Source: an uncultured Gammaproteobacteria bacterium (GTDB lineage Bacteria; Pseudomonadota; Gammaproteobacteria; SZUA-152). Taken from it: a stretch of 64,000 nt of DNA. How positions within the stretch are numbered: position 1 is the first letter of the stretch; every line of letters begins with the position of its first letter. Under the pieces are notes generated by a model. That model was not told the origin of the DNA. It made no database searches and worked only from the letters and a program-made list of their open reading frames with translations. The position numbers and the translations under genes were made by a program. This document shows positions 2,186 through 57,890 of the stretch, one piece after another. The stretch is from assembly GCA_913009875.1 (NCBI GenBank), contig CAJVYS010000004.1, positions 4,137-68,136 on the forward strand, in the 5' to 3' direction.

Positions 2186-4385
2186 ATTCCGTATCACGGT
2201 GACCATGTTCCTGCTCCAGGCCGCGATTCTTGGCGCGGTGCTGACGCAGGCCCTGTCCAACTATCTCGATGGCAGTCGCGAACAGCTGCAGCAGCAGGAG
2301 ATCGTTTCTCTTGACCTGATCGAGGGCTTTGCCCGCACCGCCCTGCTGACCAATCAGTATGATGACATCCAGCCGCAGCTGGAACAGCTCACCCGTAACG
2401 CATTCATCGAACTGGTGGTGCTGGCGGACGAATGGGGGATCATCGTTGCCTCCAGTGAGCCCGGTTGGGTCACCAAGTCACTGGTGGAAATGAAGGACTA
2501 TGCCAACTATCCACAGCGGCTGTGGAAGGAACGCATCCTGGAAAATGCCACCGGGCCACTGGGTACGCTGGGCATCGCCTTCTCTGAGGCGCCGCTGATT
2601 GCCCTGCACGACCGGGTACAGGCGCTGGCTGTCGGCTGGTCTGCCGGCGGGCTGATCCTGATCCTGCTGGTGTCCCTGCTCAGCGCCCACGTCCTTACCC
2701 GCCGCCTGGAACGCATCACCCAGGCCGCCAACGCCGTCGCCGGTGGCGATCTCAACGCCCGTTCGGGGATTACCGGCAACGATGAAATCGCCGAACTCGG
2801 CAGCGTCTTCGATGGTATGGTGTCGAGCATACGCATCGAGCGCGACCGGCTGGCGGAACGCGAACAGCACCTGTCCCTGACCCTCAACAGCATCGGTGAT
2901 GGTGTGATCGTTACCGATGCCGAGGGGCGTATCACGCGAATGAACCCGGTGGCTGAATCCCTTACCGGTTGGCACCAGGACGAGGCCGAGGGGCACCCGC
3001 TGCCGGAGGTGTTCCGCATCATCAGCGCCATCACCCGCGAGCCGGTGGACAACCCGGTGGACAAGGTGCTGGAGAGCCAGCACATCGTTGGCCTTGCCAA
3101 CCACACCGTATTGATCAGCAAGAGCGGCCATGAATACCAGATTGCCGACAGCGGTGCACCCATCATCGATGGCCACGGCAACACCCTCGGCATCATCCTG
3201 GTGTTCCGTGATGTTACCGATGAATATGCACAGCAGGCGGCGCTGAGCACGAGCCAGAAAATGCTCTCTGAGGCGCAGCGTATCTCGCATGTCGGCAGCT
3301 GGGAGCTGGAGCCGAAACACGACCGGCTGCGCTGGTCCGAGGAGACATACCGTATCTTCGAACTCGACCCGGATTCACTGAGTCATCTGTCCGGTGAGCA
3401 GTTTTTTGCGGCCCACATCGAGTATTTCCGTAACACTGTGCACCCGGACGACCTGCCGCTGCTCGATGCGGCCTATACGGCATCAGTGAAGGACCACACT
3501 CCGTTTGAAAACCGGCACCGCCTGCAGATGCCCGACGGACGCATCAAATACGTGCACGAACGCGGCGAAACCCTCTACGATAGCGACGGTACCCCCCTGC
3601 GCAGCATCGGCACGGTGCAGAATGTCACTGAACGGACGCTCGTTGAGCAGGAACTGGCGGCCTACCGTAATACCCTGGAGAAGCGAGTCGCGGCACGTAC
3701 CGCAGATCTGCTCACCGCCAATGAGGAACTGGAGGCCTTTGCCTATTCGGTGTCGCACGACCTGCGTGCGCCGTTGCGGGCCATTCATGGCTTCAGCCAG
3801 ATCCTGCAGGAAGATTACGGCAAGCTGCTCGATGATGAGGGGCGCGACTATCTGCAGCGCGTGTGCACCAACACCAAGCGCATGGGCGAACTCATCGACG
3901 ACCTGCTCAGCCTGTCCCGTATCAGTCGTCACCAGCTGAATATCAGCAGCGTATCTCTCACCGCCCTGGCCCGGGAAACCGGTGAGACACTGCAGAGGCA
4001 GAATCCCGAACGCCAGATTCACTTCGATATTCAAGCGGACGTCTCGGCCCCAGGGGACATCAGCCTGCTGCGTATCATGCTGGTAAACCTGCTCGGCAAC
4101 GCCTGGAAATACACCAGCAAATCCGACAATGTGCAAATCCACTTTGGCCGTTGTCTGCAGAATGACCATCAGGTCTTCTTCGTCCGCGACAATGGCGTGG
4201 GCTTTGACGGCCAGTACGCCAGCCAGCTTTTCACCCCTTTTCATCGTCTGCACACGGCCTACGAATTCGAAGGCACTGGCATTGGCCTGGCCACGGTGCA
4301 ACGCATCGTCCAGCGCCACGGCGGTCGAATCTGGGCCGAGGCCGAACCCGGCAAGGGCGCGACGTTTTATTTCACCCTCGGCTGA
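2166..4385 (+). CDS. Membrane sensor histidine kinase (TM - HAMP - PAS - PAS - HisKA - HATPase_c), no receiver domain
   Basis: N-terminal TM helix; HAMP-like segment; two PAS-like blocks (LNSIGDGVIVTD..., ISHVGSWELE...); HisKA H-box (SVSHDLRAPLRAI); HATPase G-boxes (GTGIGLATV); 20-nt overlap with the upstream SBP gene. Confidence 0.8.
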   Translation: MPRFSLKFRITVTMFLLQAAILGAVLTQALSNYLDGSREQLQQQEIVSLDLIEGFARTALLTNQYDDIQPQLEQLTRNAFIELVVLADEWGIIVASSEPGWVTKSLVEMKDYANYPQRLWKERILENATGPLGTLGIAFSEAPLIALHDRVQALAVGWSAGGLILILLVSLLSAHVLTRRLERITQAANAVAGGDLNARSGITGNDEIAELGSVFDGMVSSIRIERDRLAEREQHLSLTLNSIGDGVIVTDAEGRITRMNPVAESLTGWHQDEAEGHPLPEVFRIISAITREPVDNPVDKVLESQHIVGLANHTVLISKSGHEYQIADSGAPIIDGHGNTLGIILVFRDVTDEYAQQAALSTSQKMLSEAQRISHVGSWELEPKHDRLRWSEETYRIFELDPDSLSHLSGEQFFAAHIEYFRNTVHPDDLPLLDAAYTASVKDHTPFENRHRLQMPDGRIKYVHERGETLYDSDGTPLRSIGTVQNVTERTLVEQELAAYRNTLEKRVAARTADLLTANEELEAFAYSVSHDLRAPLRAIHGFSQILQEDYGKLLDDEGRDYLQRVCTNTKRMGELIDDLLSLSRISRHQLNISSVSLTALARETGETLQRQNPERQIHFDIQADVSAPGDISLLRIMLVNLLGNAWKYTSKSDNVQIHFGRCLQNDHQVFFVRDNGVGFDGQYASQLFTPFHRLHTAYEFEGTGIGLATVQRIVQRHGGRIWAEAEPGKGATFYFTLG

Positions 4386-5532: not shown

Positions 5533-5640
5533 CACCACCGTGGCCGGGCAGAAGACTGTGGGAGCGGCTCATCGTGCCCTTTGGGTATCAGCCGCGAAGC
5601 TCTTGCCAAACAATGCTTCGCGGCTGAAGCCGCTCCTACA
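5533..5640. repeat. REP-type palindromic element (GTGGGAGCGGCT...GCGGCTGAAGCCGCTCCTACAGG)
   Basis: Same motif family recurs at 21.3, 28.2, 55.5 and 57.8 kb. Confidence 0.5.
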
Positions 5641-5660
5641 GGTATCCCGTGGTTTCAAAC

Positions 5661-7256
5661 ATGACCACAGCCACCCGGCCCCGCCTTCTCACTTTTCACT
5701 TCTCCCCCCTCGCCACCCTGGCAAGCCTGGTGGTGCTGGCGGCCGCCATCCCGCTGCTGTACGTGGTCTGGAACAGCCTGCAACTGAGTGGTCCGCAATG
5801 GGCGGGATTATGGACGTCGCGCCTGCCAACACTGCTATGGAATACCCTCTCTCTGGCCCTGCTGGTGGCCATCGGCAGCGTACTGCTGGGTGTCTCCAGC
5901 GCCTGGCTGATTGCGCGGCGAGAATTCGCTGGCCGACGACTGGCGGTGTGGCTAATGGTGCTGCCGCTGACCATCCCCACCTACGTCTTCGCCCATATCT
6001 ACACCACCCTGCTGGAAGACGACGGCTGGCTCGGCCAACTGTGGATCGCCCTGTTTGACAGCGACCAATACCTGCCCGATCTGTTCAACGTCTGGGGCGC
6101 CACCCTGATCCTGACCCTGGCGGGCTTTTCTTACGTTTTTCTGCTCGCGCATTCAGCGCTGGGGGTTTCCACCCGCAGCCTGGAGGAGGCCGCACGCATC
6201 CAGGGCGCCTCGCGCGCCGAGGTGTTCTGGCGTATCAACCTGCCCCTACTGCGCCCGGCCATCGCCGCTGCGCTGGCGGTGGTGGTGCTGCACGTGCTGT
6301 CCGATTTTGGCGCCGTGAGCATGCTGCAATATCAGACCTTTACCCTGAGTATTTATCTGCAAATGAGCGGCCGCTTCAATTACCAGGCCGCCGCCGGGCT
6401 GTCGCTGGTGCTGGTGCTGCTGAGTCTCACCTTCCTGCTGCTGGAGCGCTTTTTCCGCAGCCGTCAGCGCTACTACTCGACCCGTCAGCCACGCCGTCAA
6501 CTGCGCCGCCGCGCCAATATGCTGGAGACCGGCCTGATCTGGGGCTGGCTGGGGCTGATCACCCTGCTGGCCTTCGGCCTGCCGCTGGCGTGGATGCTGA
6601 GCTGGAGTTGGGTGGCCTGGCAGGAACAGCTCATCGATGCGGAATTCTGGGGCTATGTGCGCAACTCACTGCTGGTTGCCGTACTGGCCGCCAGCGTGGC
6701 ACTGGTTGTTGCCCTGCCCGTTGCCCTCTATCACGCCCGCAAGCGCAATCTGCTGGGTGGTATCCTACTGCAGCTCTCCAGTGTCGGCTTCGTGCTACCC
6801 GGGCCGGTCATCGCGCTGGGTATCCTTAGCTTCTTCCTCGCCCAGCTGCCCTTGCTCTACGGCGGTATGACGGCGCTGGTGATCGCCCTGGTGATCCGCT
6901 TCCTGCCGCTGGCGGTGCAATCACAGGACGCCGCCATGGCCCAGCTCACCCCTTCCCTCGAACAGGCCAGCCGCAGCCTTGGCGCGGGGCCGCTGGAGAC
7001 CCTGTGGCACATCACTCTGCCGATGATCCGCGGCGGCATGGCCACCGCCTGGGTGCTGGTGTTCATCGACGCATTGAAGGAACTGCCGGCGACCCTGATC
7101 CTGCGCCCCACCGGCTTCGACACCCTGCCGGTGCGGATCTGGATCGAGGCCAGTGAGGAGATGCTGGAACTGGCCGCCCCGGCGGCGCTGATGCTGGTGA
7201 TCGGCACCCTGCCGGTGCTGTGGATCCTGCTGCGCGGTGAGCGCCGCGGTGCTTGA
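5661..7256 (+). CDS. fbpB: Fe(3+) ABC transporter permease, fused two-domain FbpB/HitB-like
   Basis: ~530 aa with duplicated 6-TM permease halves (EAA-like loops); downstream of fbpA; no cognate ATPase follows. Confidence 0.7.
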   Translation: MTTATRPRLLTFHFSPLATLASLVVLAAAIPLLYVVWNSLQLSGPQWAGLWTSRLPTLLWNTLSLALLVAIGSVLLGVSSAWLIARREFAGRRLAVWLMVLPLTIPTYVFAHIYTTLLEDDGWLGQLWIALFDSDQYLPDLFNVWGATLILTLAGFSYVFLLAHSALGVSTRSLEEAARIQGASRAEVFWRINLPLLRPAIAAALAVVVLHVLSDFGAVSMLQYQTFTLSIYLQMSGRFNYQAAAGLSLVLVLLSLTFLLLERFFRSRQRYYSTRQPRRQLRRRANMLETGLIWGWLGLITLLAFGLPLAWMLSWSWVAWQEQLIDAEFWGYVRNSLLVAVLAASVALVVALPVALYHARKRNLLGGILLQLSSVGFVLPGPVIALGILSFFLAQLPLLYGGMTALVIALVIRFLPLAVQSQDAAMAQLTPSLEQASRSLGAGPLETLWHITLPMIRGGMATAWVLVFIDALKELPATLILRPTGFDTLPVRIWIEASEEMLELAAPAALMLVIGTLPVLWILLRGERRGA

Positions 7257-7274
7257 TTTGCTTACTCAAAATCA

Positions 7275-7300
7275 CCACAGAGGACACAGAGAACACAGAG
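7275..7300. repeat. Partial copy of MITE-like TIR (CCACAGAGGACACAGAGAACACAGAG)
   Basis: Matches the 26-bp terminal inverted repeats of elements at 53454-53599 and 56400-56532. Confidence 0.4.
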
Positions 7301-7338
7301 AAAGAACCCATTTTATTAGTTTCAGCTAAAGGTTAAAA

Positions 7339-7366
7339 CCACCGCCTTTAGGTGGTCAGATTTATC
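7339..7366 (+). terminator. Putative intrinsic terminator after fbpB
   Basis: CCACCGCC-TTTA-GGTGG hairpin followed by TCAGATTTATC. Confidence 0.35.
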
Positions 7367-7428
7367 AGCCATGTTTGGTGTGTGAGCGTTGAAGTTGGAG
7401 AGGGCAGTTGCCTCTCAGGTAGGATGCT

Positions 7429-7640
7429 GGTGAGCGGAGCGAACCGCATCGGTCGCGTCTCTGGAGTCTGTGCAGGCGCCCATCGGGAGGTCTTCAGCTC
7501 TCGAATGATGCGGTTCGTGGAACTCACCGGCATCCTACAGGAAGTTCCAAAGTGGCCTTCAAGAACGGGTCTATTGACCCGTATCCGGACTTTCAGTCCG
7601 TTAAACTAACCCACCAGCTTTAGCTGGTGGTTGTTGAGTG
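7429..7640 (+). ncRNA. Candidate structured RNA/repeat element, copy 1: conserved core 7507-7640 plus an upstream inverted arm 7429-7451
   Basis: Core shares ~85% identity in blocks with 37743-37892; hairpins GATGCGG..CCGGCATC, CGGACT-TTC-AGTCCG, CCACCAGC-TTTA-GCTGGTGG followed by TTGTTGAGTG; arm 7429-7451 is the reverse complement of 7507-7540. Confidence 0.4.
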
Positions 7641-7657
7641 GGTGCTAAGGTTGTGCC

Positions 7658-8401
7658 GTGAAGCTCCACATTCTGAATGACCTACATATTGAGTTCGAAG
7701 ACTTCGAGCCACCGGCAACCGATGCTGATGTCATCGTTCTTGCCGGCGATATCGGCGTGGGTACGGGTGGGCTGCGCTGGGCAGAAGCCAAGTTTCCGGA
7801 GCGGCCAGTAATCTACGTGCCGGGGAACCACGAGTTCTACCATCATGATATTGCACTGATTGACGAGCTGAAGTCAGAGGCGCCCGATAATATTCACGTA
7901 CTGAACGACGATCAGGTCATCATCGGCGAGGTACGATTCCTGGGCAGTGTCCTGTGGACGGACTTCGCCGTGTTTGGCGAGGCGGACAAGTTTTTTGCCA
8001 TGCAGCAGGCGCGACAGCAGATGGCGGATTTTTCCATTATTCAAAATCATGGGCAGCGATTCACTCCTGAGGATGCCGCCAGGCTGCACACAGCAAGTCG
8101 GGACTGGTTGGCCGTCATGCTGGCGGAACCCTTCGCCGGCAAGACGGTGGTGGTCACCCATCATGCCCCTTCATCCCGGTCGGTGCATCCAAGGTATGCG
8201 CATGACCTGCTGACCCCGGCCTTCGCCAGCAAGCTCGAAAATCTCATGGATGGCGGTCGGGCAGCACTGTGGCTTCATGGGCACATGCATGAGTCTTTCG
8301 ATTACGAGGTCTATGGCACGCGGGTAATCTGCAACCCGCGCGGCTATGCCCCAAAGGCACTGAATCCGGACTTCAGGCCGGATTGGGTCGTGAAGATCTG
8401 A
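7658..8401 (+). CDS. Calcineurin-like metallophosphoesterase (standalone, 247 aa), GTG start
   Basis: Motifs LNDLHIE (D-x-H), LAGDIG (GD), GNHE, plus later His-rich blocks; AAGG RBS before GTG. Confidence 0.75.
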   Translation: MKLHILNDLHIEFEDFEPPATDADVIVLAGDIGVGTGGLRWAEAKFPERPVIYVPGNHEFYHHDIALIDELKSEAPDNIHVLNDDQVIIGEVRFLGSVLWTDFAVFGEADKFFAMQQARQQMADFSIIQNHGQRFTPEDAARLHTASRDWLAVMLAEPFAGKTVVVTHHAPSSRSVHPRYAHDLLTPAFASKLENLMDGGRAALWLHGHMHESFDYEVYGTRVICNPRGYAPKALNPDFRPDWVVKI

Positions 8402-8572
8402 ATAGCGAAATTTTCGACAACAGTGAAGGCCATTCGATATATGCTGACCGGTCGGCACAGAACCCCGGTATATTCGTTGCCAGCGCGGCGGCCCATGGCC
8501 CGAAAAACATGCCCAACGATTTCAATGCCTGCGAAGGTCAAAATTCGTAAACGAAAAAGGACTGCAATAAAT

Positions 8573-9289
8573 GTGTTACAGCTTGAACACATCGAAGCCA
8601 TAGAAAAACGCCTCTGGAGCGCAGCCGACAACCTGCGCGGCATACTGCCCAAGAGTGAATACCAGGAGCTGGACAACCAGGTCCTCGGTGATTTTCTGCG
8701 CACCCTCAACCCCGAGGAGCTGAAGAAGGTCTCCGGCGACGTCTTCGGTCGCATCTACGAATACTTCCTTACCCAGTTTGCAGATCAGAAGGCCCACGAC
8801 GGCGGCGAGTTCTTCACCCCCGTCTCGCTGGTCTCGCTCATCGCCCATGTGCTGGACCCCGAGAGCGGCACCGTGCTAGACCCGGCCTGCGGCTCCGGCG
8901 GCATGTTCGTGCAGAGCGCGCGCATCGTCGAGGAGCACGGCGACAGCCCCACGGAAAAGCTCACCTTCCGTGGCCTGGAGAAAAACGCCACCACCATCCG
9001 CCTGGCCAAGATGAACCTCGCCGTTTACGGCCTGGAAGGGGAAGATGAAGAGGGCAATGTCATTCATCCCCTGCCCGAGTATCTCGATGCCATCCAGAGC
9101 CTGTGGGGAACCCTTGAGCCATTACGTTGCCGTCTGGTGAGCTTCGCCAATCACTATGAAAGGCGCTCGTTGCGAAGGGAAGGGCCAGATATGAAGGTGA
9201 AAAGTGCTGGTGGCGATACTGATCTATCTGAATGGCTATTGAACACCATGCTTGCTAATCAGCCAGGGAATTCTGCTTGTTTTGTGTGA
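8573..9289 (+). pseudogene. hsdM: Type I R-M methyltransferase HsdM, N-terminal fragment. Homology ends near 9040; the catalytic NPPF region is missing.
   Basis: EFFTPVSLVSLIAHVLDPESGTVLDPACGSGGMFVQS (motif I) and LAKMNLAVYGLEG; remainder of the ORF is unrelated read-through. Confidence 0.7.
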
Positions 9290-9408
9290 TAGGCTCCCCT
9301 GCTGGAGTGATAACCCTTGGTTATCAGTGAGTTATATTTGAGGTGACCCCGGTAAATCCTGCTGAATTGCCAATAGAATGTTCGATAGAAACGGAGGGGG
9401 AAGCAGCG

Positions 9409-9680
9409 AGCCATGGCGCCAACGGCCTACACCGAGGACAGCCTCGTCAGCAGACCGCCGCCGATTATCTGGAGAGGCAGTTCGGTTGGTGGTTGGTGTG
9501 TCTGCGTGGAGCGATGAGGACTTCGGGCTGGTTGGGCGAGTGGGCCGTGGTGCAGACAAGGGGGCTGTTTGGCGAGCCAGAAGCAGATGGTGGAGTTATT
9601 CGGCAAGGATATCTGGACCATCAAGGAGCACGTCGGCAACACTTTTGATGAAGGCGACGAACCTGCTGGGTAAGATCCCA
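9409..9680 (+). pseudogene. Degenerate, frameshifted copy of the HsdR N-terminus (MAPTAYTEDSLV...) followed by a RhuM-N-like fragment (KQMVELFGKDIWTIKEHVGN)
   Basis: Homologous, with one frameshift, to the 10318.. HsdR N-terminus (MASSNYTEDTLEQQTTAEHLESVLGW) and to the RhuM N-terminus at 10455. Confidence 0.4.
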
Positions 9681-9753
9681 ATCCGGAAGGCACGACGAAT
9701 GACATCAAATGATGTATTGTTTGATGCATGCAAATCAAGTACGAGGTGCTGCA

Positions 9754-9951
9754 ATGCGCACAACCCTGAACATCGACGACCAGTTGCTGGCCGAGGCCCA
9801 ACGCATTACCGGGGTATCCGAAAAAGCCGCTTTGGTGAGGGAGGGGCTGAGGGCCCTGATCGAGCGAGAGAGCGCCCGCCGGCTGGCGCGGCTGGGTGGT
9901 AGTGAGCCGCAATTGAAACCGGTACCTCGCCGCCAGTCCGACCCGGCATGA
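9754..9951 (+). CDS. vapB: Type II antitoxin VapB (ribbon-helix-helix, Rv0623-like)
   Basis: MRTTLNIDDQLLAEAQRITGVSEKAALVREGLRALIERE; GAGG RBS; ATGA overlap with vapC; imperfect palindrome TTGATGCATGCAAATCAA just upstream. Confidence 0.8.
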   Translation: MRTTLNIDDQLLAEAQRITGVSEKAALVREGLRALIERESARRLARLGGSEPQLKPVPRRQSDPA

Positions 9952-10310
9952 TCCTGGTCGATACTTCTGTCTGGATCGATCATCTGCGTACCGGAGACGA
10001 GCGACTGGCGGACTTGCTCAACCGCTGCCAGGTTGTCATGCATCCCTTTGTGATTGGCGAGTTGGCTTGTGGAAATCTGCGCAAGCGGGGTGAAGTGCTC
10101 CGGCTACTCAATGATTTGCCCCAGGCAACAGTCGCCTCTCAGGATGAGGTGCTGCACTTGATTAAGCACAAGAAACTGATGGGGCTGGGAATCGGTTTCA
10201 TCGATGCTCACCTGCTGGCTTCCGCTGCGTTGACAGATGCGGCCGTGATATGGACACGCGATAAGCGGTTGCAGAAGGCTGCTGCAAAGCTGAAGCTGGC
10301 GGTGGACTGA
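9948..10310 (+). CDS. vapC: PIN-domain toxin VapC
   Basis: MILVDTSVWIDHLR...; conserved acidic residues of the PIN fold; 120 aa. Confidence 0.85.
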   Translation: MILVDTSVWIDHLRTGDERLADLLNRCQVVMHPFVIGELACGNLRKRGEVLRLLNDLPQATVASQDEVLHLIKHKKLMGLGIGFIDAHLLASAALTDAAVIWTRDKRLQKAAAKLKLAVD

Positions 10311-10317
10311 TAACCAT

Positions 10318-10458
10318 GGCTTCCTCCAACTACACCGAAGACACCCTGGAGCAGCAAACCACGGCCGAGCATCTGGAATCGGTGCTCGGTTGGGCGTCGG
10401 TGCTTGCCTGTGACAAGGCCCTTACTGGAAAGGGTTACGATGCAAGGAGGCATTATGA
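10318..10458 (+). pseudogene. hsdR: HsdR N-terminal 46-codon remnant (MASSNYTEDTLEQQTTAEHLESVLGWASV...), terminated where the rhuM-like start overlaps
   Basis: Typical HsdR N-terminus; stops after 46 codons at TGA overlapping ATG 10455. Confidence 0.5.
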
Positions 10459-12285
10459 GTGAGCTGGTCATTTTTGAGGTGGGGGCGCAGCAGGTTGAGG
10501 TACGGTTGGAGGGGGAGACTTTGTGGGTCACCCAGGTACAGATGGCAGAGCTGTTTAATACTTCTTCCGACAATATCAGTCTGCATCTGAAGAATATCTA
10601 TAATGAATCGGAACTTATGGAACAGGCAACTACCGAGGATTTCTCGGTAGTTCGTCAGGAGGGGGAACGACAGGTGCGCAACCTGTTCGATGAGTCTCTC
10701 GGCGAGCCGAAGAAGATCATCGCCCGCAATCACCAGTTTCTTGGCGTCAATCGCGCCATTGAGGCGGTGCGAAACCGTGAGGCGCGCCACGGCAAGCTGG
10801 GCGTGTTCTGGCACACGCAGGGTTCGGGCAAGAGCTATTCCATGGTGATGTTCACCCGCAAGGTGCATCACAAGCTGGGCGGCAATTTCACCTTTCTGGT
10901 GCTTACCGATCGTGATGACCTCGACACCCAGATCTACAAAACCTTCGCTAACTGCGGGGTGATCAGCGACCAGGAGCAGTGCCGGGCCGCCACCTGAACG
11001 AGCTGCTGACTCAGCACAAGGCCGACATCTTTTCCCTGATTCAGAAATTCAACCAGAAGGTGGAGCCGGAGCAGCCCTATAGCGAACGCGATGACATCAT
11101 CGTGATTACCGACGAGGCGCACCGTACCCAGTACGGCACTCTGGCGCTGAATCTGCGCAACGCCCTGCCCAATGCCAGCTATATTGGCTGGATGCACGAG
11201 ACCCGCATGGCGGTGGTGGTGAGCGAGGAGCAGGGCGAGGTGGACAAGTTCCGCAAGTGGGATCTGGACACCACGCCGCACCGCCGGCTGATGAAGGAGG
11301 GCATCGATCTGCCCGAGGCCATGCACGCAAAGCCGGAGTACAGAAGCATGCAGAGCATGGCGCTGGATGACGCCTTCAAGGTGCAGGAGCATCCGCCATC
11401 GTGGCCTGCAAGGAGGCGGCCAACGAAAACGACGAAAGTCGTAAGCGCTTTGAGGTGATGTGCCGCGAGGTGTTCAAGAAGTTCAAGGCCTGCATCAATG
11501 TGCCGGGGGTGAATGCCCACCGCGCGGAGCGGGATGCCATCAACATTGTCTACAAGCGCCTGCAACAGGACCGCGAGCAGGCCGACATCACTAACATCAT
11601 CCGGCAGTTGCACGAGGTGGTGGATGAGGCGATCGAGGTTCAACCCGATTGGCAAGGTGAGGAACTTGCACCCTACGACATCAGCAAGATCGACTTCGAC
11701 CGCCTGCGCCAGGAATTCGAGCGCAGCCCAAGCAAGAACACCATGGTACAAAACCTCCGCCAGTCCGTGGAGCAGCGGCTGCAACGCCTGTTGCAGCAAA
11801 ACCCGCTGCGCACCGATTTTCAGCAGCACTACGAACAGATCGTTGCCGAGTACAACCGTGAGAAGGACCGGGTGACCATCGAGAAAACCTTCGAGTCCCT
11901 GTTCACTCTCGTCCAGGAACTCGACGAGGAGGAGCATCGCGCCATGCGCGAAGGGCTAGACGAGGAGTCACTGGCGATTTTTGACCTGCTCAAGAAGCCG
12001 GATCTGGATGCGGCCGAGATCAAGCGCATCAAGTCCGTCGCCGTCGAACTGCTCGAAAAATTGAAACAGGAAAAACTGCGTATCGATCAATGGCGTGACG
12101 GCGAGGCAACAAGGGATGCTGTGCGGGTGACTATTCGAGACTTCCTATGGAGTGACGATACGGGCCTGCCAGTCGACAACTACACTGAAGATGATGTGGA
12201 CACCAAGGCCGAAGAAGTGTTTCGCCACATTTATCGGGTCTATCCGACGGTGCCATCACCATACTATGCGGCTGCAGCCCTCTAG
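10455..12285 (+). pseudogene. hsdR: RhuM-N'::HsdR' fusion. RhuM N-terminal ~85 aa is joined in frame to the HsdR helicase core, with frameshifts near 10980 and 11400. The HsdR C-terminal domain is intact; the HsdR nuclease domain is absent.
   Basis: AAGGAGG RBS; RhuM signature LWVTQVQMAELF...FSVVRQEGERQV; HsdR motif I GSGKS, DEAH-box IIVITDEAHRTQYG, truncated motif III NASYIGW; C-terminal DUF3387-like domain in a third frame (11401-12285). Confidence 0.65.
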
Positions 12286-12307
12286 CCATTGAAGCGCAGG
12301 CCGGGAT

Positions 12308-12332
12308 AATGATATCACTTTATGATATCATT
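12308..12332. promoter_or_regulatory. Palindromic operator AATGATATCA-CTT-TATGATATCATT upstream of hicA
   Basis: Perfect 10-bp inverted repeat directly before the hicA start. Confidence 0.4.
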
Positions 12333-12337
12333 TGACT

Positions 12338-12592
12338 ATGAGCCGAAAGCATAGCCGCACCCTGGCGGCCATCTTCGCCAACCCTGTCCGCGCCAATATC
12401 GTGTGGACTGACATTGAGGTGATGCTTAAGGCCATCGGAGCGGAGATCTCGGAAGGTGAAGGTCCCCGCGTTTGGGTTGCGCTCAACGATGTGCGGGCCG
12501 TCTTCCACCGGCCGCACCCGGAGAAGGAAACGGACAAGGGGGCCGTGAAGTCGATGCGTACATTTTTGGAGCGCTCAGGCATCACACCCTAG
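12338..12592 (+). CDS. hicA: HicA-family mRNA interferase toxin
   Basis: YcfA/HicA-like ~85 aa; followed by the HicB partner. Confidence 0.7.
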   Translation: MSRKHSRTLAAIFANPVRANIVWTDIEVMLKAIGAEISEGEGPRVWVALNDVRAVFHRPHPEKETDKGAVKSMRTFLERSGITP

Positions 12593-12635
12593 TATTGATT
12601 AAAAGGCCTGCGGGCCATAACAGATAGGTAGCATC

Positions 12636-12962
12636 ATGTTGAAATATAAAGGTTATATAGGTCAGGTGGAATTTGATGCCGAGGCTAATATTATTCATGG
12701 CGAGGTAATCAACACCCGCGATGTAATCACCTTTCAGGGTGAATCTGTGGACGAGCTACGCCAAGCCTTTGAGGCCTCGGTCGAGGACTATCTGGCCTTT
12801 TGTGCTGAACGTGGCGAAGATCCAGACAAGCCATTCTCCGGCCAATTTCTGATCCGGGGTAAGCCAGATTTGCACCGTGATATTTTTGCTGCGGCGGCAA
12901 GGGAGGGAAAGAGTCTGAACGCCTACGTGATTGAGCAGCTAGACCGGCTCGTACACGCCTAA
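12636..12962 (+). CDS. hicB: HicB-family antitoxin
   Basis: HicB N-domain (MLKYKGYIGQVEFDAEANIIHGEV) plus C-terminal RHH-like DNA-binding region. Confidence 0.8.
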   Translation: MLKYKGYIGQVEFDAEANIIHGEVINTRDVITFQGESVDELRQAFEASVEDYLAFCAERGEDPDKPFSGQFLIRGKPDLHRDIFAAAAREGKSLNAYVIEQLDRLVHA

Positions 12963-13381
12963 TGTGATGTCAGCTCATCAAGAGCAGTTCTACTCTCTTG
13001 ATCGCACCGGTCACGGTAGGACATTAAATCCTGATAACGAATGCGGCGATGTGTTCCGGTCTTGGAGAAGGGAATGGTTCCCTCTTCAAGTAATTTCACC
13101 AAATGAGGGCGAGAGACGTTGAGTATGTTTGCGGCTTCCTGAGTCGTCAGTTCCGCATGGGTCGGTACGATCGTTACCGCATTACCCTGGGCCATTTCCA
13201 CGAGCAGTTCACGCAACAGAACCAATGCCTGTCTTGGCAAGATAAGGTCATTACCATCTAATTGCACTCTGGCACGTTTTGCTTCAGGGATTTGGCCAAG
13301 AAGGCGACTCAGCTCCTCAGCACTTGCACGAGCCAATGCTGAAGACTCTATATCTGGCAATACTTGGGGGTGAGCGGTCAT
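12959..13381 (-). CDS. Excisionase-family HTH DNA-binding protein with N-terminal domain (possible TA/regulatory component)
   Basis: C-terminal TQEAANILNVSRPHLVKLLEEGTIPFSKTGTHRRI (excisionase/MerR-like HTH); convergent with hicB and overlapping it by 4 nt. Confidence 0.55.
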   Translation of the reverse strand: MTAHPQVLPDIESSALARASAEELSRLLGQIPEAKRARVQLDGNDLILPRQALVLLRELLVEMAQGNAVTIVPTHAELTTQEAANILNVSRPHLVKLLEEGTIPFSKTGTHRRIRYQDLMSYRDRCDQESRTALDELTSH

Positions 13382-13624
13382 TATATATATCCTGAATTAT
13401 GTAAGACTTGCCCTGAAGTATATTCGAAATAAACGAAAGCGCAATATTCGAAAAGGCTGGTAAGAGTGCTCATGAGGCGGAATTCGTGGCTCTGTATCTA
13501 CGGTACACCACCCAGTTTTCACTTACTGTGCTAGCCTATTGAATTAACATGATTTTAGCTAATTGTACCGAGTACACCCTAATCTAGAATAATTAGTAAC
13601 TCGTTGATTTTACTGGTGCTCAGA

Positions 13625-13663
13625 ATCCCTTGGTCCACGGTTCGAGTCCCTGCGGGCCCACCA
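13625..13663 (+). other. tRNA 3'-end fragment (T-arm GGTTCGAGTCC + acceptor 3' strand + ACCA); relic integration/att site, not a complete tRNA
   Basis: CACGG-TTCGAGT-CCCTG T-arm, CGGGCCC, A, CCA; no matching 5' acceptor strand upstream; sits in a ~320-bp AT-rich tract (13382-13700). Confidence 0.5.
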
Positions 13664-13818
13664 ATAATCAACGGGCTCGCATGGCCCGTTAAGTCTCTCC
13701 AAGTTCGCCGATGCCATCAGGCAGGGGGCTCTATACTTGTAATGAACAAGGTGTTGCGGAGAATTTCGCGGGGGAGGGTTTTATCGAAGTCGGTGCTGAG
13801 GGTGGATGGTTTCTGGCC

Positions 13819-21336: not shown

Positions 21337-21510
21337 TCGTAGGAGCGGGCCATGCCCGCGAAAACCCACGAAAAACAACAGAATTGCGGGAGCGGCTTCA
21401 GCCGCGATTAATGGGTGGCCCTATTCGCGGCTGAAGCCGCTCCCACCGTTATTAAAATAACACCCCAGTAAAACTATCGCGGGCATGGCCCGCCCCTACA
21501 AAAGACAGCG
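21337..21510. repeat. Cluster of REP palindromes (GTAGGAGCGGGCCATGCCCGCGAA type and GCGGGAGCGGCTTCAGCCGCGA type, each with an inverted partner)
   Basis: Four REP units in alternating orientation (BIME-like) in the yyaL-like to GATase intergenic region. Confidence 0.6.
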
Positions 21511-28170: not shown

Positions 28171-28230
28171 GCGCGTCTGTAAGCCGAGCATGTGAGCGGG
28201 CCACGCCTGCGAGGGCCAGCTACAAGCACT

Positions 28231-28294
28231 GTGGGAGCGGCTTCAGCCGCGAAGCAGAATCTGGCATGGCAATTGCGGCTGAAGCCGTTCCCAC
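28231..28294. repeat. REP pair (GTGGGAGCGGCTTCAGCCGCGAAG ... TGCGGCTGAAGCCGTTCCCAC)
   Basis: Inverted REP units forming a long hairpin. Confidence 0.5.
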
Positions 28295-28330
28295 ATAACA
28301 CTGCCTGTTGCCTGATCTCGGGCGGGCTAC

Positions 28331-37543: not shown

Positions 37544-37742
37544 TTGGGGGTGTTCTCAATGGATTAAGACCATAACTGCCGGCCCTTTGGGTTGCGCCTG
37601 AAAAAAACGCTATGCTGCGTTGTTCGTCGTTCATTTGCAAATGAGTCAATTTCTCCCCTCACGCCTCGTCTCAGGGCGTCTACTTTGAGGGGAGGGGTGG
37701 CATCGGCAAACATCCGCGCCGGGCACTTGATCATACGCGAAC

Positions 37743-37892
37743 GATGCGGTTCGCTACCGCTCACCGGCATCCTACACGGTATTTTGAGACGTATTGTCCG
37801 GTTGGGTTTCAAAACGGGTCTACCGATCCATATCCGGACTTTCAGTCCGTAAGACTAACCTACCCGCTTTGGCGGGTGGTGGTTGTTGAGTG
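37743..37892 (+). ncRNA. Candidate structured RNA/repeat element, copy 2
   Basis: Homologous to 7507-7640; same three hairpins, terminal hairpin ACCCGC-TTTG-GCGGGT with a compensatory change, then TTGTTGAGTG; 10 nt from the stop of the convergent WGR gene. Confidence 0.4.
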
Positions 37893-50540: not shown

Positions 50541-53450
50541 ATGAGCCATATCGACATTGATCCATACCTGCGCGCGATACCCGCAGCATTGCGCGATGAC
50601 CTGGCTGCGCGCTGGGCGGCCTTCGCCGATGCCGTGGACGACATGCCGTCCGTGTTGGATGATGCGCTGCTGCCTGAGCTGTGCCGTGTCTGGGCCTGTA
50701 GTGATTTTGTCGCCCAGTACTGCGTGCGTGATCCGGCGCTGTTGTTCGATCTGCTCGACAGCGGTGACCTGCACCAGGCCTATGCCGTCGACACCCTCGC
50801 CACCCGTGTGCAGGTGGCCATCGACGACGCTATCGATTTCGATGGCCTCGGCACCGCCCTGCGCCGCCTGCGCCGCCGCGAGATGCTGCGCATCGCCTGG
50901 CGAGATATCGCCGGCCATGCCGATCTCTGGCGGACCTCCACCGAGCTCTCGGCGCTGGCCGAGGCCTGCGTGCGGGGTGCCCTGGGCCGTCTGCAGGGCT
51001 GGCTGCAGACGGAATGGGGTGTGCCCACCGGCGCCGCCAGCGGCACGCCGCAGCAACTGGTGGTGCTGGGTATGGGCAAGCTGGGCGCCCACGAGCTGAA
51101 TTTCTCCTCCGACATTGACCTCATTTTCGCCTACCCCGAAAGCGGTGAAACCCGCGGTGTGCCACGCACGCGCAGCAACGAGGAATTTTTCACCCGCCTG
51201 GGTCGTGACCTGATTCGCACCCTGGACGAGAACACCGCCGAAGGCTTCGTGTTTCGCGTCGATATGCGCCTGCGTCCCTTCGGCGGCAGCGGCGCGCTGG
51301 CGCTGAACTTCGAGGCCATGGAAAACTACTACCAGGTGCACGGCCGTGACTGGGAGCGCTATGCCCTCATCAAGGCACGTCCGGTGGCCGGCCGGCCCGA
51401 AGATGGCGAACAGCTGCTGGGCCTGCTGCGTCCCTTCATCTACCGTCGTTATCTCGACTACGGCGCCTTCGCCGCCCTGCGTGAGATGAAGGCCATGGTA
51501 GCCGCCGAGGTGCAGCGCCAGGGCATGGCCGATAACGTCAAGCTGGGCGCCGGCGGCATCCGTGAAGTAGAGTTTATCGGTCAGGCCTTCCAGCTGATTC
51601 GCGGTGGTCGCGAGCCGGCCCTGCAGCAGCGTGAGATCCGCCGCGTGCTGGCATGGCTGGCCGAGCAGGACTACCTGCCGCGCTACGTGGTGGTACAACT
51701 GCTCGATGCCTACGTGTTCCTGCGCGACACCGAACACCGCCTGCAGGAATACCGTGACCAGCAGACCCATCGCCTGCCTACGGATCAGACCGCTCGCCAA
51801 CGCCTCGCTTACAGCATGGACTGCGAGACCTGGGACGACTTCATCCCCGTGCTGCGTGGCCATATGGCACGGGTGCACAGTCACTTCGAGCAGGTCTTCG
51901 AAGCGCCGCAGACCGGCGATGGCAAGGCCGCCCTGGATGCCCTGTGGCAGGGGACGCTGGACGACGTCGCTGCGCAGATGGCGCTGCGGGAGGCCGGTTT
52001 TGATGACACCGCGGCCGTGTTGCGGCAGATCACCGCATTGCGTGACAGTTCGCGCTACCGCGCCCTGCACCGTACCGGCCGTGAGCGGCTGGATCGGTTG
52101 ATGCCGCTGCTGCTGGGGGCGGCGGGGGCGCACGACGAGGCCGACGTGGTGTTGCAGCGGCTGCTGAAACTGATTGAGGCCGTGGCTCGCCGCAGCGCCT
52201 ATCTCTCCCTGTTGGTGGAGCACCCGCTGGCCCTGTCGCAGCTGGTGCGCCTGTGTGCAGCCAGCCCGTGGATTGCGGCAAGGCTGGTGCAGTACCCCCT
52301 GTTGCTGGACGAACTGCTGGATGCACGCAGCCTGTACGCGCCAGCCTCTCGCGATGAACTGGCCGCTGAGCTGCAACGCCGGCTGGACGCCGTGCCCGAC
52401 GACGACCTGGAACAGGCCATGGACACGCTGCGTCAGTTCAAGCAGGCGGCGGTGCTGTGCGTGGCCGCCGCCGATGTGATGGACGCTGTGCCGCTGATGG
52501 TGGTGAGCGACCACCTTAGCCATATCGCCGAGGTGATCCTGGAGCAGGTACTGGAACTGGCCTGGGTCGATCTGCAGCGCCGTTACGGTAAGCCCTCTGC
52601 GGCGGGCGACGCCCCCGATGAGGAAAAAGGCTTCGCCATCGTCGCCTACGGCAAGTTGGGGGGTATCGAACTGGGCTATGGCTCGGATCTGGACATGGTG
52701 TTCCTGCATGCCAGTAACGATGCTGCGCCGGTCAGCAGCGCCGTGACCGCAGGGCCGAAGGTGGTGGCGGATGCCGTGTTTTATGCCCGCCTTGGCCAGC
52801 GCATTATTCACTTTCTGACCGCCCTCACCCCGGCCGGCACACTTTACGAGGTGGACATGCGCCTGCGGCCCAGCGGCGCCTCCGGCCTGCTGGTGGTGGG
52901 CCTGCCCGGCTTCGAGGATTACCAGAAAAACAAGGCCTGGATCTGGGAGCACCAGGCCCTGGTGCGGGCGCGGGTGGTGGCGGGCGATGGAGCCGTGGCG
53001 AAGGAATTCCGCCGCGTGCGCCACGAGGTGCTGACCCGCGAGCGCGATCCGCTGCTGCTACAGAAAGAGGTACGCGAGATGCGTGAGCGTATGCGTGACA
53101 ACCTGAGCCGCGAATCCGCCGGCTGGTTCGATCTCAAACAGGGGCGCGGCGGTATCGCCGATATCGAATTTATGGTTCAATTCGGAGTTCTGCGCTGGGC
53201 GCACCAGGCTCCGGATCTGACCGACTTCACGGACAATATCCGCCTCCTGGCCGGCCTCGCCGCGCACGGCTTTTTTAATGCCCAGGAATGCCGCATCCTC
53301 AGTGACGCCTACCGCGCCTATCGTGCCGAGGTGCATCGCCTGTCGCTACAGGAACGGCCTGCGCGGGTGGATACGGCGCGCCTCAGTGGCGCGCGCGAGG
53401 CGGTGAGGGGCATTTGGCGCAAGTACCTCGAGACAGATGGCTCGAAATGA
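50541..53450 (+). CDS. glnE: Bifunctional glutamine synthetase adenylyltransferase/deadenylyltransferase
   Basis: Duplicated nucleotidyltransferase domains; 969 aa. Confidence 0.9.
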   Translation: MSHIDIDPYLRAIPAALRDDLAARWAAFADAVDDMPSVLDDALLPELCRVWACSDFVAQYCVRDPALLFDLLDSGDLHQAYAVDTLATRVQVAIDDAIDFDGLGTALRRLRRREMLRIAWRDIAGHADLWRTSTELSALAEACVRGALGRLQGWLQTEWGVPTGAASGTPQQLVVLGMGKLGAHELNFSSDIDLIFAYPESGETRGVPRTRSNEEFFTRLGRDLIRTLDENTAEGFVFRVDMRLRPFGGSGALALNFEAMENYYQVHGRDWERYALIKARPVAGRPEDGEQLLGLLRPFIYRRYLDYGAFAALREMKAMVAAEVQRQGMADNVKLGAGGIREVEFIGQAFQLIRGGREPALQQREIRRVLAWLAEQDYLPRYVVVQLLDAYVFLRDTEHRLQEYRDQQTHRLPTDQTARQRLAYSMDCETWDDFIPVLRGHMARVHSHFEQVFEAPQTGDGKAALDALWQGTLDDVAAQMALREAGFDDTAAVLRQITALRDSSRYRALHRTGRERLDRLMPLLLGAAGAHDEADVVLQRLLKLIEAVARRSAYLSLLVEHPLALSQLVRLCAASPWIAARLVQYPLLLDELLDARSLYAPASRDELAAELQRRLDAVPDDDLEQAMDTLRQFKQAAVLCVAAADVMDAVPLMVVSDHLSHIAEVILEQVLELAWVDLQRRYGKPSAAGDAPDEEKGFAIVAYGKLGGIELGYGSDLDMVFLHASNDAAPVSSAVTAGPKVVADAVFYARLGQRIIHFLTALTPAGTLYEVDMRLRPSGASGLLVVGLPGFEDYQKNKAWIWEHQALVRARVVAGDGAVAKEFRRVRHEVLTRERDPLLLQKEVREMRERMRDNLSRESAGWFDLKQGRGGIADIEFMVQFGVLRWAHQAPDLTDFTDNIRLLAGLAAHGFFNAQECRILSDAYRAYRAEVHRLSLQERPARVDTARLSGAREAVRGIWRKYLETDGSK

Positions 53451-53453
53451 TTC

Positions 53454-53599
53454 GCCACAGAGGCACGGAGGACACAGAGGGAAGAATTTTTGGCTTTCGC
53501 CAAGGCGCAGAGCCCGCAAAGAAAAGCCTTTTAATTTTTCTTTTGCGTCTTGGCGAGAAAACAAGGATCTTTTCTCTGTGTCCTCCGTGCCTCTGTGGC
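53454..53599. repeat. MITE-like element: perfect 26-bp terminal inverted repeats GCCACAGAGGCACGGAGGACACAGAG flanking a ~94-bp core
   Basis: Starts 4 bp after the glnE stop; second copy at 56400-56532, partial copy at 7275-7300. Confidence 0.5.
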
Positions 53600-53651
53600 A
53601 AAAGCTGATGGCAGTAACAACCGAATAGGGTAGAAGAGGAGTAACAGACTT

Positions 53652-55532: not shown

Positions 55533-55641
55533 TGTGGGAGCGGCTTTAGCCGCGAATGACCGCAGGTTCTCTTCGCGGCTAAAGCCGCTCCCACAGGGTC
55601 GACAGTCTTACCAAACCATCGCGGGCATGGCCCGCTCCTAC
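55533..55641. repeat. REP cluster (CTGTGGGAGCGGCTTTAGCCGCGAA ... inverted partner, then GCGGGCATGGCCCGCTCCTAC)
   Basis: Both REP types together. Confidence 0.5.
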
Positions 55642-56399: not shown

Positions 56400-56532
56400 G
56401 CCACAGAGGCGCGGAGAGCACAGAGAAGGACGGGGGATGCGGCTCGGTGGTACTGGCGATCATCAAGAATACTTATTACGGAGAAATGAGAGTAAAAGAA
56501 TTTTTTCTCTGTGTTCTCCGTGCCTCTGTGGC
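56400..56532. repeat. MITE-like element, second copy (TIR GCCACAGAGGCGCGGAGAGCACAGAG ... CTCTGTGTTCTCCGTGCCTCTGTGGC)
   Basis: TIRs ~90% identical to the 53454 copy; internal core unrelated. Confidence 0.5.
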
Positions 56533-56562
56533 GAATAAGGTTTTGTCGTGAGCGGGTTGTTC

Positions 56563-57828: not shown

Positions 57829-57890
57829 TGTGGGAGCGGCTTCAGCCGCGAAGGATATGGCAAGCCCTTCGCGGCTGAAGCCGCTCCCAC
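57829..57890. repeat. REP pair (TTGTGGGAGCGGCTTCAGCCGCGAAGG ... inverted partner)
   Basis: Perfect long palindrome. Confidence 0.5.

Follow-up and report, generated by a model that had tools for sequence, protein, structure and literature searches.

Decayed type I restriction-modification genes in the probable remnant of a tRNA-Met(CAT)-linked defence island from an uncultured gammaproteobacterium

We analysed a 64,000-nucleotide stretch of DNA (hereafter the window, numbered from its first letter) from an uncultured gammaproteobacterium with relatives among hydrothermal and marine metagenome-assembled genomes, corresponding to positions 4,137 to 68,136 of the forward strand of contig CAJVYS010000004.1 (assembly GCA_913009875.1). 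Positions 7257-13700 of the window are probably the immobilised, degraded remnant of a defence island associated with tRNA-Met(CAT). The backbone of this island would have comprised a metallophosphoesterase gene and a type I restriction-modification (R-M) operon with embedded genes for HEC-01A/B, an MNT-type nucleotidyltransferase (PDC-S09) and the toxin-antitoxin (TA) pair vapBC, and it appears directly downstream of an intact tRNA-Met(CAT) in a related locus, L041. At least six deletions, together with one or more frameshifts, have put an end to the R-M system. The parts that still look functional, judging by sequence, are the metallophosphoesterase, with all its catalytic motifs, and the TA pairs vapBC and hicAB, with their complete domains. 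A third TA pair (HTH_17/PIN_3) has lost its toxin gene, leaving a truncated antitoxin behind, and a 45-nt 3' fragment of tRNA-Met(CAT) would be the distal, att-type scar of integration. As the 64-kb window has neither an integrase nor an intact tRNA, the remnant would now be unable to excise. We infer the order of these events, as well as post-segregational killing or neutrality as the reason why the TA pairs outlasted the R-M genes. An earlier note on this DNA had described a decayed defence island, a description borne out by the intact relatives and the independent assemblies presented here.

Two relatives provide the template against which the remnant can be read. The first, L003, is a gammaproteobacterial metagenome-assembled genome found by scanning species-representative genomes with the FGGY-type kinase of the right flank, and its kinase is 92% identical to that of the window at the amino acid level. 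Directly upstream of the kinase gene it carries hsdM (cut by the contig end), hsdS, HEC-01A/B (an AAA_21 ATPase and a DUF4276 protein, as called by PADLOC), a 99-aa open reading frame (ORF), a nucleotidyltransferase of the MNT type (PADLOC PDC-S09), vapB, vapC and an hsdR of 1076 aa. The second, L041, was reached through a search for homologues of the metallophosphoesterase, which is 89% identical there, and shows the order rpoD 3' end, intact tRNA-Met(CAT), terminator, metallophosphoesterase gene, hsdM (678 aa), hsdS and HEC-01A/B. In the part that L041 and L003 share, HsdM and HEC-01A/B are 91-99% identical and HsdS is 65% identical, and together the two loci reconstruct the ancestral island. 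They supply the template for the comparison with relatives holding intact hsd genes that the earlier note had proposed. By simple arithmetic, the distance from the start of the metallophosphoesterase gene to the stop of hsdR is ~11 kb in the L041 and L003 composite vs 4.6 kb in the window.

The remnants of the R-M operon, and of the genes once embedded in it, are as follows.

8573..9289, plus strand: hsdM remnant within ORF 8423-9289, residues ~54-217 of the 678-aa HsdM, motif I kept
9270..9392, plus strand: tail of the 99-aa ORF, residues 58-98 of the L003 ORF at 66% identity (tblastn)
9413-9492, plus strand: second hsdR 5' stub, frameshifted, L003 HsdR residues 10-49 (tblastn)
9566-9670, plus strand: PDC-S05 fragment 1 (PADLOC E 7.6e-9, profile positions 29-57 of 82)
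10328-10408, plus strand: hsdR stub, residues 2-28
10455-10682, plus strand: PDC-S05 fragment 2 (E 3e-28, profile positions 5-78 of 82), which replaces the nuclease domain
10683-10994, plus strand: hsdR piece, residues 253-356, fused in frame to PDC-S05 fragment 2, with a frameshift after it
10976-11191, plus strand: hsdR piece, residues 354-425
11183-11395, plus strand: hsdR piece, residues 585-655
11392-12273, plus strand: hsdR piece, residues 780-1073, with a frame change before it

The earlier note had hsdM stopping after motif I, and this is what we find: ORF 8423-9289 matches only positions 2-106 of 311 of the Pfam N6_Mtase profile. N-terminal and internal codons have been lost too. When the HsdM of L041 is aligned by tblastn, residues 54-217 match at 81% and residues 415-473 at 34% identity, with nothing beyond, and the deletions comprise ~46 N-terminal codons, residues ~218-414 (the motif IV region, ~200 codons) and also the C-terminus. 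The reported absence of hsdS is likewise supported, as no ORF holds a Methylase_S domain (Pfam) and the HsdS proteins of L003 and L041 give no tblastn match. Positions 4833-5060 of L003 correspond to positions 9230-9456 of the window (blastn), and in L003 the intact 99-aa ORF stands between HEC-01B and the gene for the MNT-type nucleotidyltransferase. Its tail in the window marks the far side of a ~4.6-kb deletion that removed hsdS and HEC-01A/B.

Mapped by tblastn with the intact 1076-aa HsdR of L003, the hsdR remnants span 10316..12285 on the plus strand in five pieces. Three blocks have gone, residues 29-252 (the nuclease domain), 426-584 and 656-779, and what is left is spread over three frames. 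Pfam recognises SWI2_SNF2 positions 1-75, SWI2_SNF2 positions 83-151 and T1RH-like_C positions 57-323 in the three hsdR-derived ORFs. The loss of the nuclease domain had thus been described correctly, but the decay is dominated by three large deletions and not by the two frameshifts put forward earlier, and the second stub and the PDC-S05 fragments had been overlooked. A unit consisting of an hsdR 5' stub and a PDC-S05 fragment lies on either side of vapBC (9413-9670 and 10316-10682), and the two stubs have 74% nucleotide identity to each other. The two PDC-S05 fragments cover the same profile positions and are therefore two copies, not halves of one gene; the paired units either arose by duplication or are what is left of a second hsd allele. 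Of what a functional type I R-M system comprises, the window lacks a complete HsdM, any HsdS, and a single-frame HsdR with nuclease and superfamily 2 (SF2) motor. Because HsdM is left without its motif IV region, hsdS is gone and HsdR is without its nuclease and much of its helicase, the locus is predicted neither to methylate nor to restrict.

Exact-protein look-ups led to five metagenome contigs from four assemblies (ERZ909563, with two contigs, ERZ909564, ERZ23499121 and ERZ1742236). These are 99.4-100% identical to the window and show the same fragments, deletions and junctions; exact look-ups of the kinase and GDPD proteins returned no record, probably owing to different start codons. That the broken hsd genes are an assembly or sequencing artefact of this genome could be argued from the frameshifts, since those of a single assembly may be wrong, and from L001, which has one extra A at ~11079, within an hsdR fragment. 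The main lesions, though, are deletions of hundreds to thousands of bases and not homopolymer slips, and these deletions and their junctions are shared by contigs from separate assemblies. The recurrence of the same broken layout therefore rules out an assembly artefact, and we give an artefactual origin of the hsd lesions next to no chance.

It is also highly improbable that the hsd fragments have been co-opted, for instance in the form of the ORF that fuses PDC-S05 to HsdR(253-356), or of a regulator or decoy role for the truncated HsdM. The fusion is in frame, includes PDC-S05 positions 5-78 of 82, and forms a 180-aa ORF that is called in L001 too. However, no intact catalytic module is left, a related hsd locus (L044) has decayed independently and in a different pattern, and the hsdR remnant shows an indel polymorphism, together with single-nucleotide polymorphisms (SNPs) relative to L047 that are nonsynonymous in 5/5 cases, a very small count. 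The counts are equally small for vapC, in which 2/2 SNPs relative to L001 are synonymous, and for hicA, with two synonymous and two nonsynonymous SNPs. Overall, the SNP pattern fits hsd genes that are dead and a vapC under constraint.

The TA genes of the island, all of which belong to type II modules, are the following.

9754-9951, plus strand: vapB, VapB_antitoxin positions 1-46 of 47
9948-10310, plus strand: vapC, PIN positions 1-119 of 120, with a 4-nt overlap with vapB
12338-12592, plus strand: hicA, HicA_toxin positions 1-57 of 58
12636-12962, plus strand: hicB, HicB positions 1-51 of 51
12959..13381, minus strand: HTH_17 gene (140 aa), matching HTH_17 and TIGR01764 (Pfam, NCBIfam), 3'-truncated

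Both vapBC and hicAB are intact, as had been stated before, with complete domains in all four proteins. The vapB and vapC genes adjoin each other, and the acidic residues of the VapC PIN domain (D5, E38, D86 and D105) are all present in the translation, so that the pair looks like a genuine TA module; the same would hold for hicAB, in which hicA lies upstream of hicB and both domains are complete. The palindromic operators attributed to both pairs are a different matter. A perfect 10-nt inverted repeat does precede hicA at 12308-12332 (AATGATATCA-N5-TGATATCATT), and a promoter-like site lies at 12283-12310, upstream of hicAB, but no inverted repeat with an exact 6-nt seed was found upstream of vapB, where only 5-nt arms and the palindrome TGCATGCA can be made out by eye. 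The vapBC genes of L003 occupy the same operon position and are 87% (vapB) and 68% (vapC) identical to those of the window. Since they stand between the embedded modules and hsdR in this intact operon, vapBC is an original, embedded component of the operon and not a later arrival.

The helix-turn-helix (HTH) gene named in the earlier note is present at 12959-13381, and is described more exactly as an orphan antitoxin gene, truncated and bereft of its PIN_3 toxin gene. Its homologues form a large, highly conserved family of 148 aa, and in L045 and L046 a PIN_3/VapC50_C toxin gene of 187 aa comes directly after the HTH_17 gene. P0122, the antitoxin of this HTH_17 (excisionase-type)/PIN_3 TA pair in L045, has 91% identity to the window protein. 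In contrast to that pair, it is shorter and altered at its C-terminal end (...DELTSH* vs ...DELTAQAQEHDMGY in the intact 148-aa P0122), and no PIN_3 toxin gene follows the HTH_17 gene in the window. The shortened C-terminus and the missing neighbour therefore point to an orphan antitoxin, eight residues short, whose toxin gene has been deleted. With this antitoxin orphaned, TA modules decay at the locus too, through loss of the toxin gene first. It is plausible that the remaining TA pairs stabilise the remnant through addiction, and the survival of the TA pairs and the metallophosphoesterase could also reflect independent selection or chance.

The link to a tRNA comes from one short feature near the right edge of the island.

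13619..13671, plus strand: 3' part of tRNA-Met(CAT) that begins in the anticodon loop and ends with CCA (13619-13663, 45 nt), and ~8 nt of conserved downstream sequence

The tRNA 3' end noted earlier is thus real, but spans 45 nt and not 39. The fragment is identical to metagenomic tRNA-Met(CAT) genes at 42/45 positions and to the tRNA-Met(CAT) of L041 at 43/45, and it is the sole copy in the window. A parental gene, which the earlier note had proposed to look for, is not present in the window: ARAGORN detected no tRNA or tmRNA in the 64 kb, nor in L003-L007. Rfam gave no match, its tRNA model included, for the whole window at the gathering threshold and for the island at E <= 1, and an exact 25-mer of the fragment had no match in viral contigs. 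The type of the parental tRNA could be read from metagenomes and from L041. We found the 23-mer of 13641-13663 at 26 loci in metagenomes: in 18 it forms the exact 3' end of a complete tRNA (11 tRNA-Met(CAT) and 7 tRNA-Lys(TTT)), and in the other 8 it belongs to a fragment without a tRNA. The parental type is thereby identified as tRNA-Met(CAT), the neighbour of the island in L041. With its CAT anticodon and its place right behind rpoD, the L041 tRNA resembles E. coli ileX (tRNA-Ile2), and the "Met" assigned by ARAGORN may therefore be Ile2.

Fragment-only loci adjoin genes of mobile elements, including an integrase and a capsid gene (L029), DUF3987 (L027) and hipBA (L036), and L034, with the full tRNA, and L036, with the fragment, have a common downstream flank and form an attB/attR pair. 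The window fragment has the same 5' limit, in the anticodon loop, as the attR-type fragments in L036, L027, L029, L024 and L030. From its anatomy and this limit, we take the fragment to be a putative attR-type scar, left by an element whose target is tRNA-Met(CAT). The resemblance to tRNA-Met(CAT) genes carries on for ~8 nt beyond the CCA in several loci. A short A-rich motif ending in AATCAA follows the CCA in L012, L013, L016, L017, L026, L032 and L041, as well as in the window (13664-13671). It is found after complete tRNA-Met(CAT) genes, after tRNA-Lys genes and after fragment-only copies, which suggests that the att core of one integrase family may reach ~10 nt beyond the tRNA. In L047 and L048, otherwise 99.4% identical to the window, two of the 45 fragment positions differ in each, as expected for non-functional DNA.

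Two further features lie at the edges of the island.

7257..7657, no strand: left junction, with a fragment of a miniature inverted-repeat transposable element (MITE; ~7268-7310) and a structured repeat element (~7400-7645)
13382..13618, no strand: spacer rich in AT (GC 0.38) that precedes the HTH gene and holds the direct repeat ATATTCGAAA at 13420 and 13444

The composition of the region sets it apart: at 0.55, the GC content of the 6.4 kb between 7257 and 13700 is the lowest among all 6.4-kb stretches of the window (mean 0.61), vs 0.61-0.62 in the flanks. This minimum coincides at 7257 and 13700 with the ends of synteny on both sides. On the left, the permease-bearing relatives L049 and L050 are homologous to the window up to 7249-7257 and not beyond. 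The iron ATP-binding cassette (ABC) permease of L049-L051 is 90-92% identical to that of the window and is followed by unrelated genes that differ in each, and no empty site joining the permease to the kinase gene was recovered among these three relatives. Homology with the metallophosphoesterase-bearing relatives begins at 7645-7659. The stretch at 7257-7657 is therefore junction filler peculiar to this lineage, and the structured element and MITE fragment that had been named as the left edge are both there. On the right, L003 and L004 become homologous to the window again only from ~13701-13712, and the sequence left of this point differs in each genome. In the more distant L005-L007, which are without the island, the kinase gene is preceded by a gene whose N-terminal sequence, by eye, looks pseudouridine-synthase-like. 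The island is thus missing at the site upstream of the kinase gene in L004-L007, and at the site downstream of the permease gene in L049-L051.

Across the clade, synteny breaks right after the iron ABC permease gene and right before the FGGY-type kinase gene. Of seven related genomes, the five whose flank is assembled have unrelated genes at the break, L004 has only 200 nt of unrelated sequence, and among the relatives compared an island upstream of the kinase gene is common to L003 only. The break points at 7257 and 13701 look like recurrent rearrangement or insertion sites. No rpoD lies within the 64-kb window, and the island has either been parted from its tRNA or been inserted secondarily at its present site. 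The AT-rich spacer at 13382-13618 has no Pfam match in any of its six frames. No integrase or recombinase domain was detected by Pfam in any ORF, in the six-frame translation of the spacer region 13370-13720 or in the plus-strand frames of 9280-9715, so that the earlier statement that none is left stands.

The history of the right-hand end leaves room for other explanations. The tRNA-like fragment might be a decayed resident tRNA gene upstream of the kinase gene, that is, a pseudogene and not an integration scar, which we regard as improbable. A weak alignment to the L041 tRNA does extend 5' into the D-arm (GTAACTC-GTTGATTTTA vs GTAGCTCAGTTGGTTAGAG), and a hairpin follows the CCA (13668-13692). 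This extension is poor, though, with three gaps, and good similarity starts only at the anticodon loop, the limit of attR-type fragments. Additionally, the five genomes L003-L007 show neither a tRNA nor a fragment ahead of the kinase gene (0/5), and the fragment lies within the variable segment, ~40 nt left of the point at which the homology of the relatives resumes.

Several observations weigh against a single, tRNA-borne island as we have described it. Among the relatives that share the right flank L003 is the closest, and it lacks hicAB, the HTH gene and the tRNA fragment between hsdR and the kinase gene, and the right-hand 1.4 kb may for this reason be foreign to the element that carried the R-M backbone. 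L041 has no integrase between the tRNA and the metallophosphoesterase gene, no relative showed the two ends of the island together, the halves of the T-stem in the fragment (CACGG and CCCTG) pair imperfectly, and the SNP counts are tiny. The imperfect T-stem may come either from a hybrid att site or from a point mutation, and the integrase-mediated origin of the R-M island is our interpretation of these loci. The main rival is a reading with two histories, in which the metallophosphoesterase, hsd and vapBC genes are an old, vertically inherited islet that L003 has as well, and the right-hand 1.4 kb, with hicAB, the truncated HTH_17 antitoxin gene, the AT-rich tract and the tRNA fragment, is the tail of a different, later element that integrated into tRNA-Met(CAT) and was mostly deleted after its arrival. 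It is compatible with the island remnant proposed here, and we hold it to be a real possibility, if not a probable one. L003 is without the whole segment 12286-13700, yet it has the same right-hand core junction, and the GC content of this segment is 0.38-0.54 vs 0.57-0.59 in the backbone. HTH_17/PIN_3 homologues occur in unrelated contexts, as in L045 with TIR, Lhr and SNF2 genes, and TA genes adjoin the attR-type fragments of other elements, such as hipBA in L036. On the other hand, the intact backbone of L041 is itself joined to a tRNA-Met(CAT), the very type of the fragment, which makes a single island simpler, and the absence from L003 could just as well be due to a deletion in its lineage. 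We therefore retain the degraded remnant of one tRNA-Met(CAT)-associated island as the probable explanation of the locus.

The left-most gene of the island encodes the metallophosphoesterase.

7658..8401, plus strand: metallophosphoesterase, 247 aa, intact (Pfam Metallophos, E 2e-11)

It is the sole gene outside the TA modules that stays intact beside the decaying R-M system. Its five motifs (DxH, GD, GNHE, HH and GHxH) are invariant in the alignment, and its homologues fall into more than 7800 clusters; the 120 best-matching ones, which come from many metagenomes, share at least 79% identity with it and almost always have its length of 247 aa. Searched by sequence against PDB chains, the protein has no match at E <= 0.01. 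The AlphaFold (AF2) model (pLDDT 79, pTM 0.84) has as its closest solved fold PptH of Mycobacterium tuberculosis (6UNC; Foldseek TM 0.63, E 4e-7), followed by MPPED2. Identity to PptH is only ~20%, and the five motifs are present as in calcineurin-like metallophosphoesterases. Because PptH is the closest solved fold, the model hints that the substrate may be a phosphodiester such as a protein-linked or nucleotide cofactor. The PADLOC candidate PDC-S10 matches the protein partially, over residues 1-104 only.

We compared four settings of this gene, namely 7658-8401 in the window, 8001-8744 in L038, 531-1274 in L041 and 8001-8744 in L044. The contexts vary, and the gene always adjoins R-M or TA genes. 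Twice it stands right after tRNA genes, tRNA-Met(CAT) in L041 and tRNA-Ala and tRNA-Glu in L038, where hipBA is also present, and it adjoins decayed hsd genes in L044 and in the window. In L044 (1-10230; metallophosphoesterase 82% identical), the related hsd locus next to it has decayed independently, leaving a 200-aa ORF that fuses the HsdR N-terminus to the C-terminus and a 74-aa HsdM_N fragment. As the gene has been kept intact, has top homologues with at least 79% identity and turns up repeatedly where variable regions border on a tRNA, next to R-M or TA genes, it might be an autonomous, horizontally spreading gene for defence or island maintenance, although we think this rather unlikely.

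The structured element at 7400-7645 folds into a long hairpin followed by three short ones (minimum free energy -125 kcal/mol, z = -7.8), and has no Rfam match. A second, partial copy at ~37700-37890 has the 3' half in common with it (repeat family D3, by alignment), and, judged by eye, the base changes within the last hairpin look compensatory (CCACCAGC/GCTGGTGG vs TACCCGC/GCGGGTGG). We considered whether the element travels with the metallophosphoesterase gene and rejected this, as the sequence upstream of the gene in L038, L041 and L044 is unrelated. A conserved 20-mer of the element is absent from the 36 loci fetched. Additionally, two families of short palindromic repeats, similar to MITEs or repetitive extragenic palindromic (REP) sequences, are scattered in the window, with the cores CCACAGAGGCACGGAGGACACAGAG and TGTGGGAGCGGCTTCAGCCGCGAA; the left junction of the island holds a fragment of the first, CCACAGAGGCACGGAGGACACAGAG-core family.

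7268-7310, 53450-53602 and 56488-56536: short palindromic repeats
5588-5641, 21385-21446, 28229-28306, 55533-55594 and 57829-57890: further short palindromic repeats

The value of the locus lies mainly in annotation and evolution, and it raises no new mechanistic question. It offers a residue-level record of a type I R-M operon with embedded genes falling apart, in which large deletions came first and hsdS and the nuclease domain were lost. The TA pairs and the phosphoesterase outlast the other parts, and the TA pairs decay as well through loss of toxin genes. Automated surveys should not count the locus as an active R-M or defence system. The conserved, tRNA-proximal metallophosphoesterase is the only lead here that might repay further work.

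Defence genes nested in type I R-M operons offer a first point of comparison, as the type I R-M system of VPI-2 in Vibrio cholerae carries a nested TgvAB (PMC11411939). Payne and colleagues surveyed "embedded" HEC and PDC candidates and defined HEC-01, which gave no protection in published assays, and they describe PrrC as almost exclusively embedded in type I R-M systems (bioRxiv 10.1101/2024.01.29.577857). L003 and L041 share this nesting, with hsdM-hsdS, HEC-01A/B, PDC-S09, vapBC and hsdR. In contrast to such embedded operons, the R-M system of the window is dead, HEC-01A/B and the nucleotidyltransferase gene have been deleted, and vapBC is the sole embedded survivor.

A second comparison is with tRNA-linked islands. 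Similar to these, the window element has a low GC content, is missing from its site in more distant relatives and carries a 45-nt copy of a tRNA 3' end distally, and an intact tRNA stands next to the same backbone in the relative L041. Unlike them, it has neither an intact tRNA nor an integrase, only one att-like copy is present, and its left edge is made up of repeats beside the iron ABC permease gene. With the distal tRNA 3' repeat, the atypical composition and the absence from the site in relatives on one side, and the missing intact tRNA and integrase on the other, the window element is an incomplete tRNA island. Islands linked to tRNA genes and bearing attR scars are well known, as are R-M systems reduced to pseudogenes and orphan antitoxins, and the locus is a well-documented case of an ordinary decay process, not a new kind of system.

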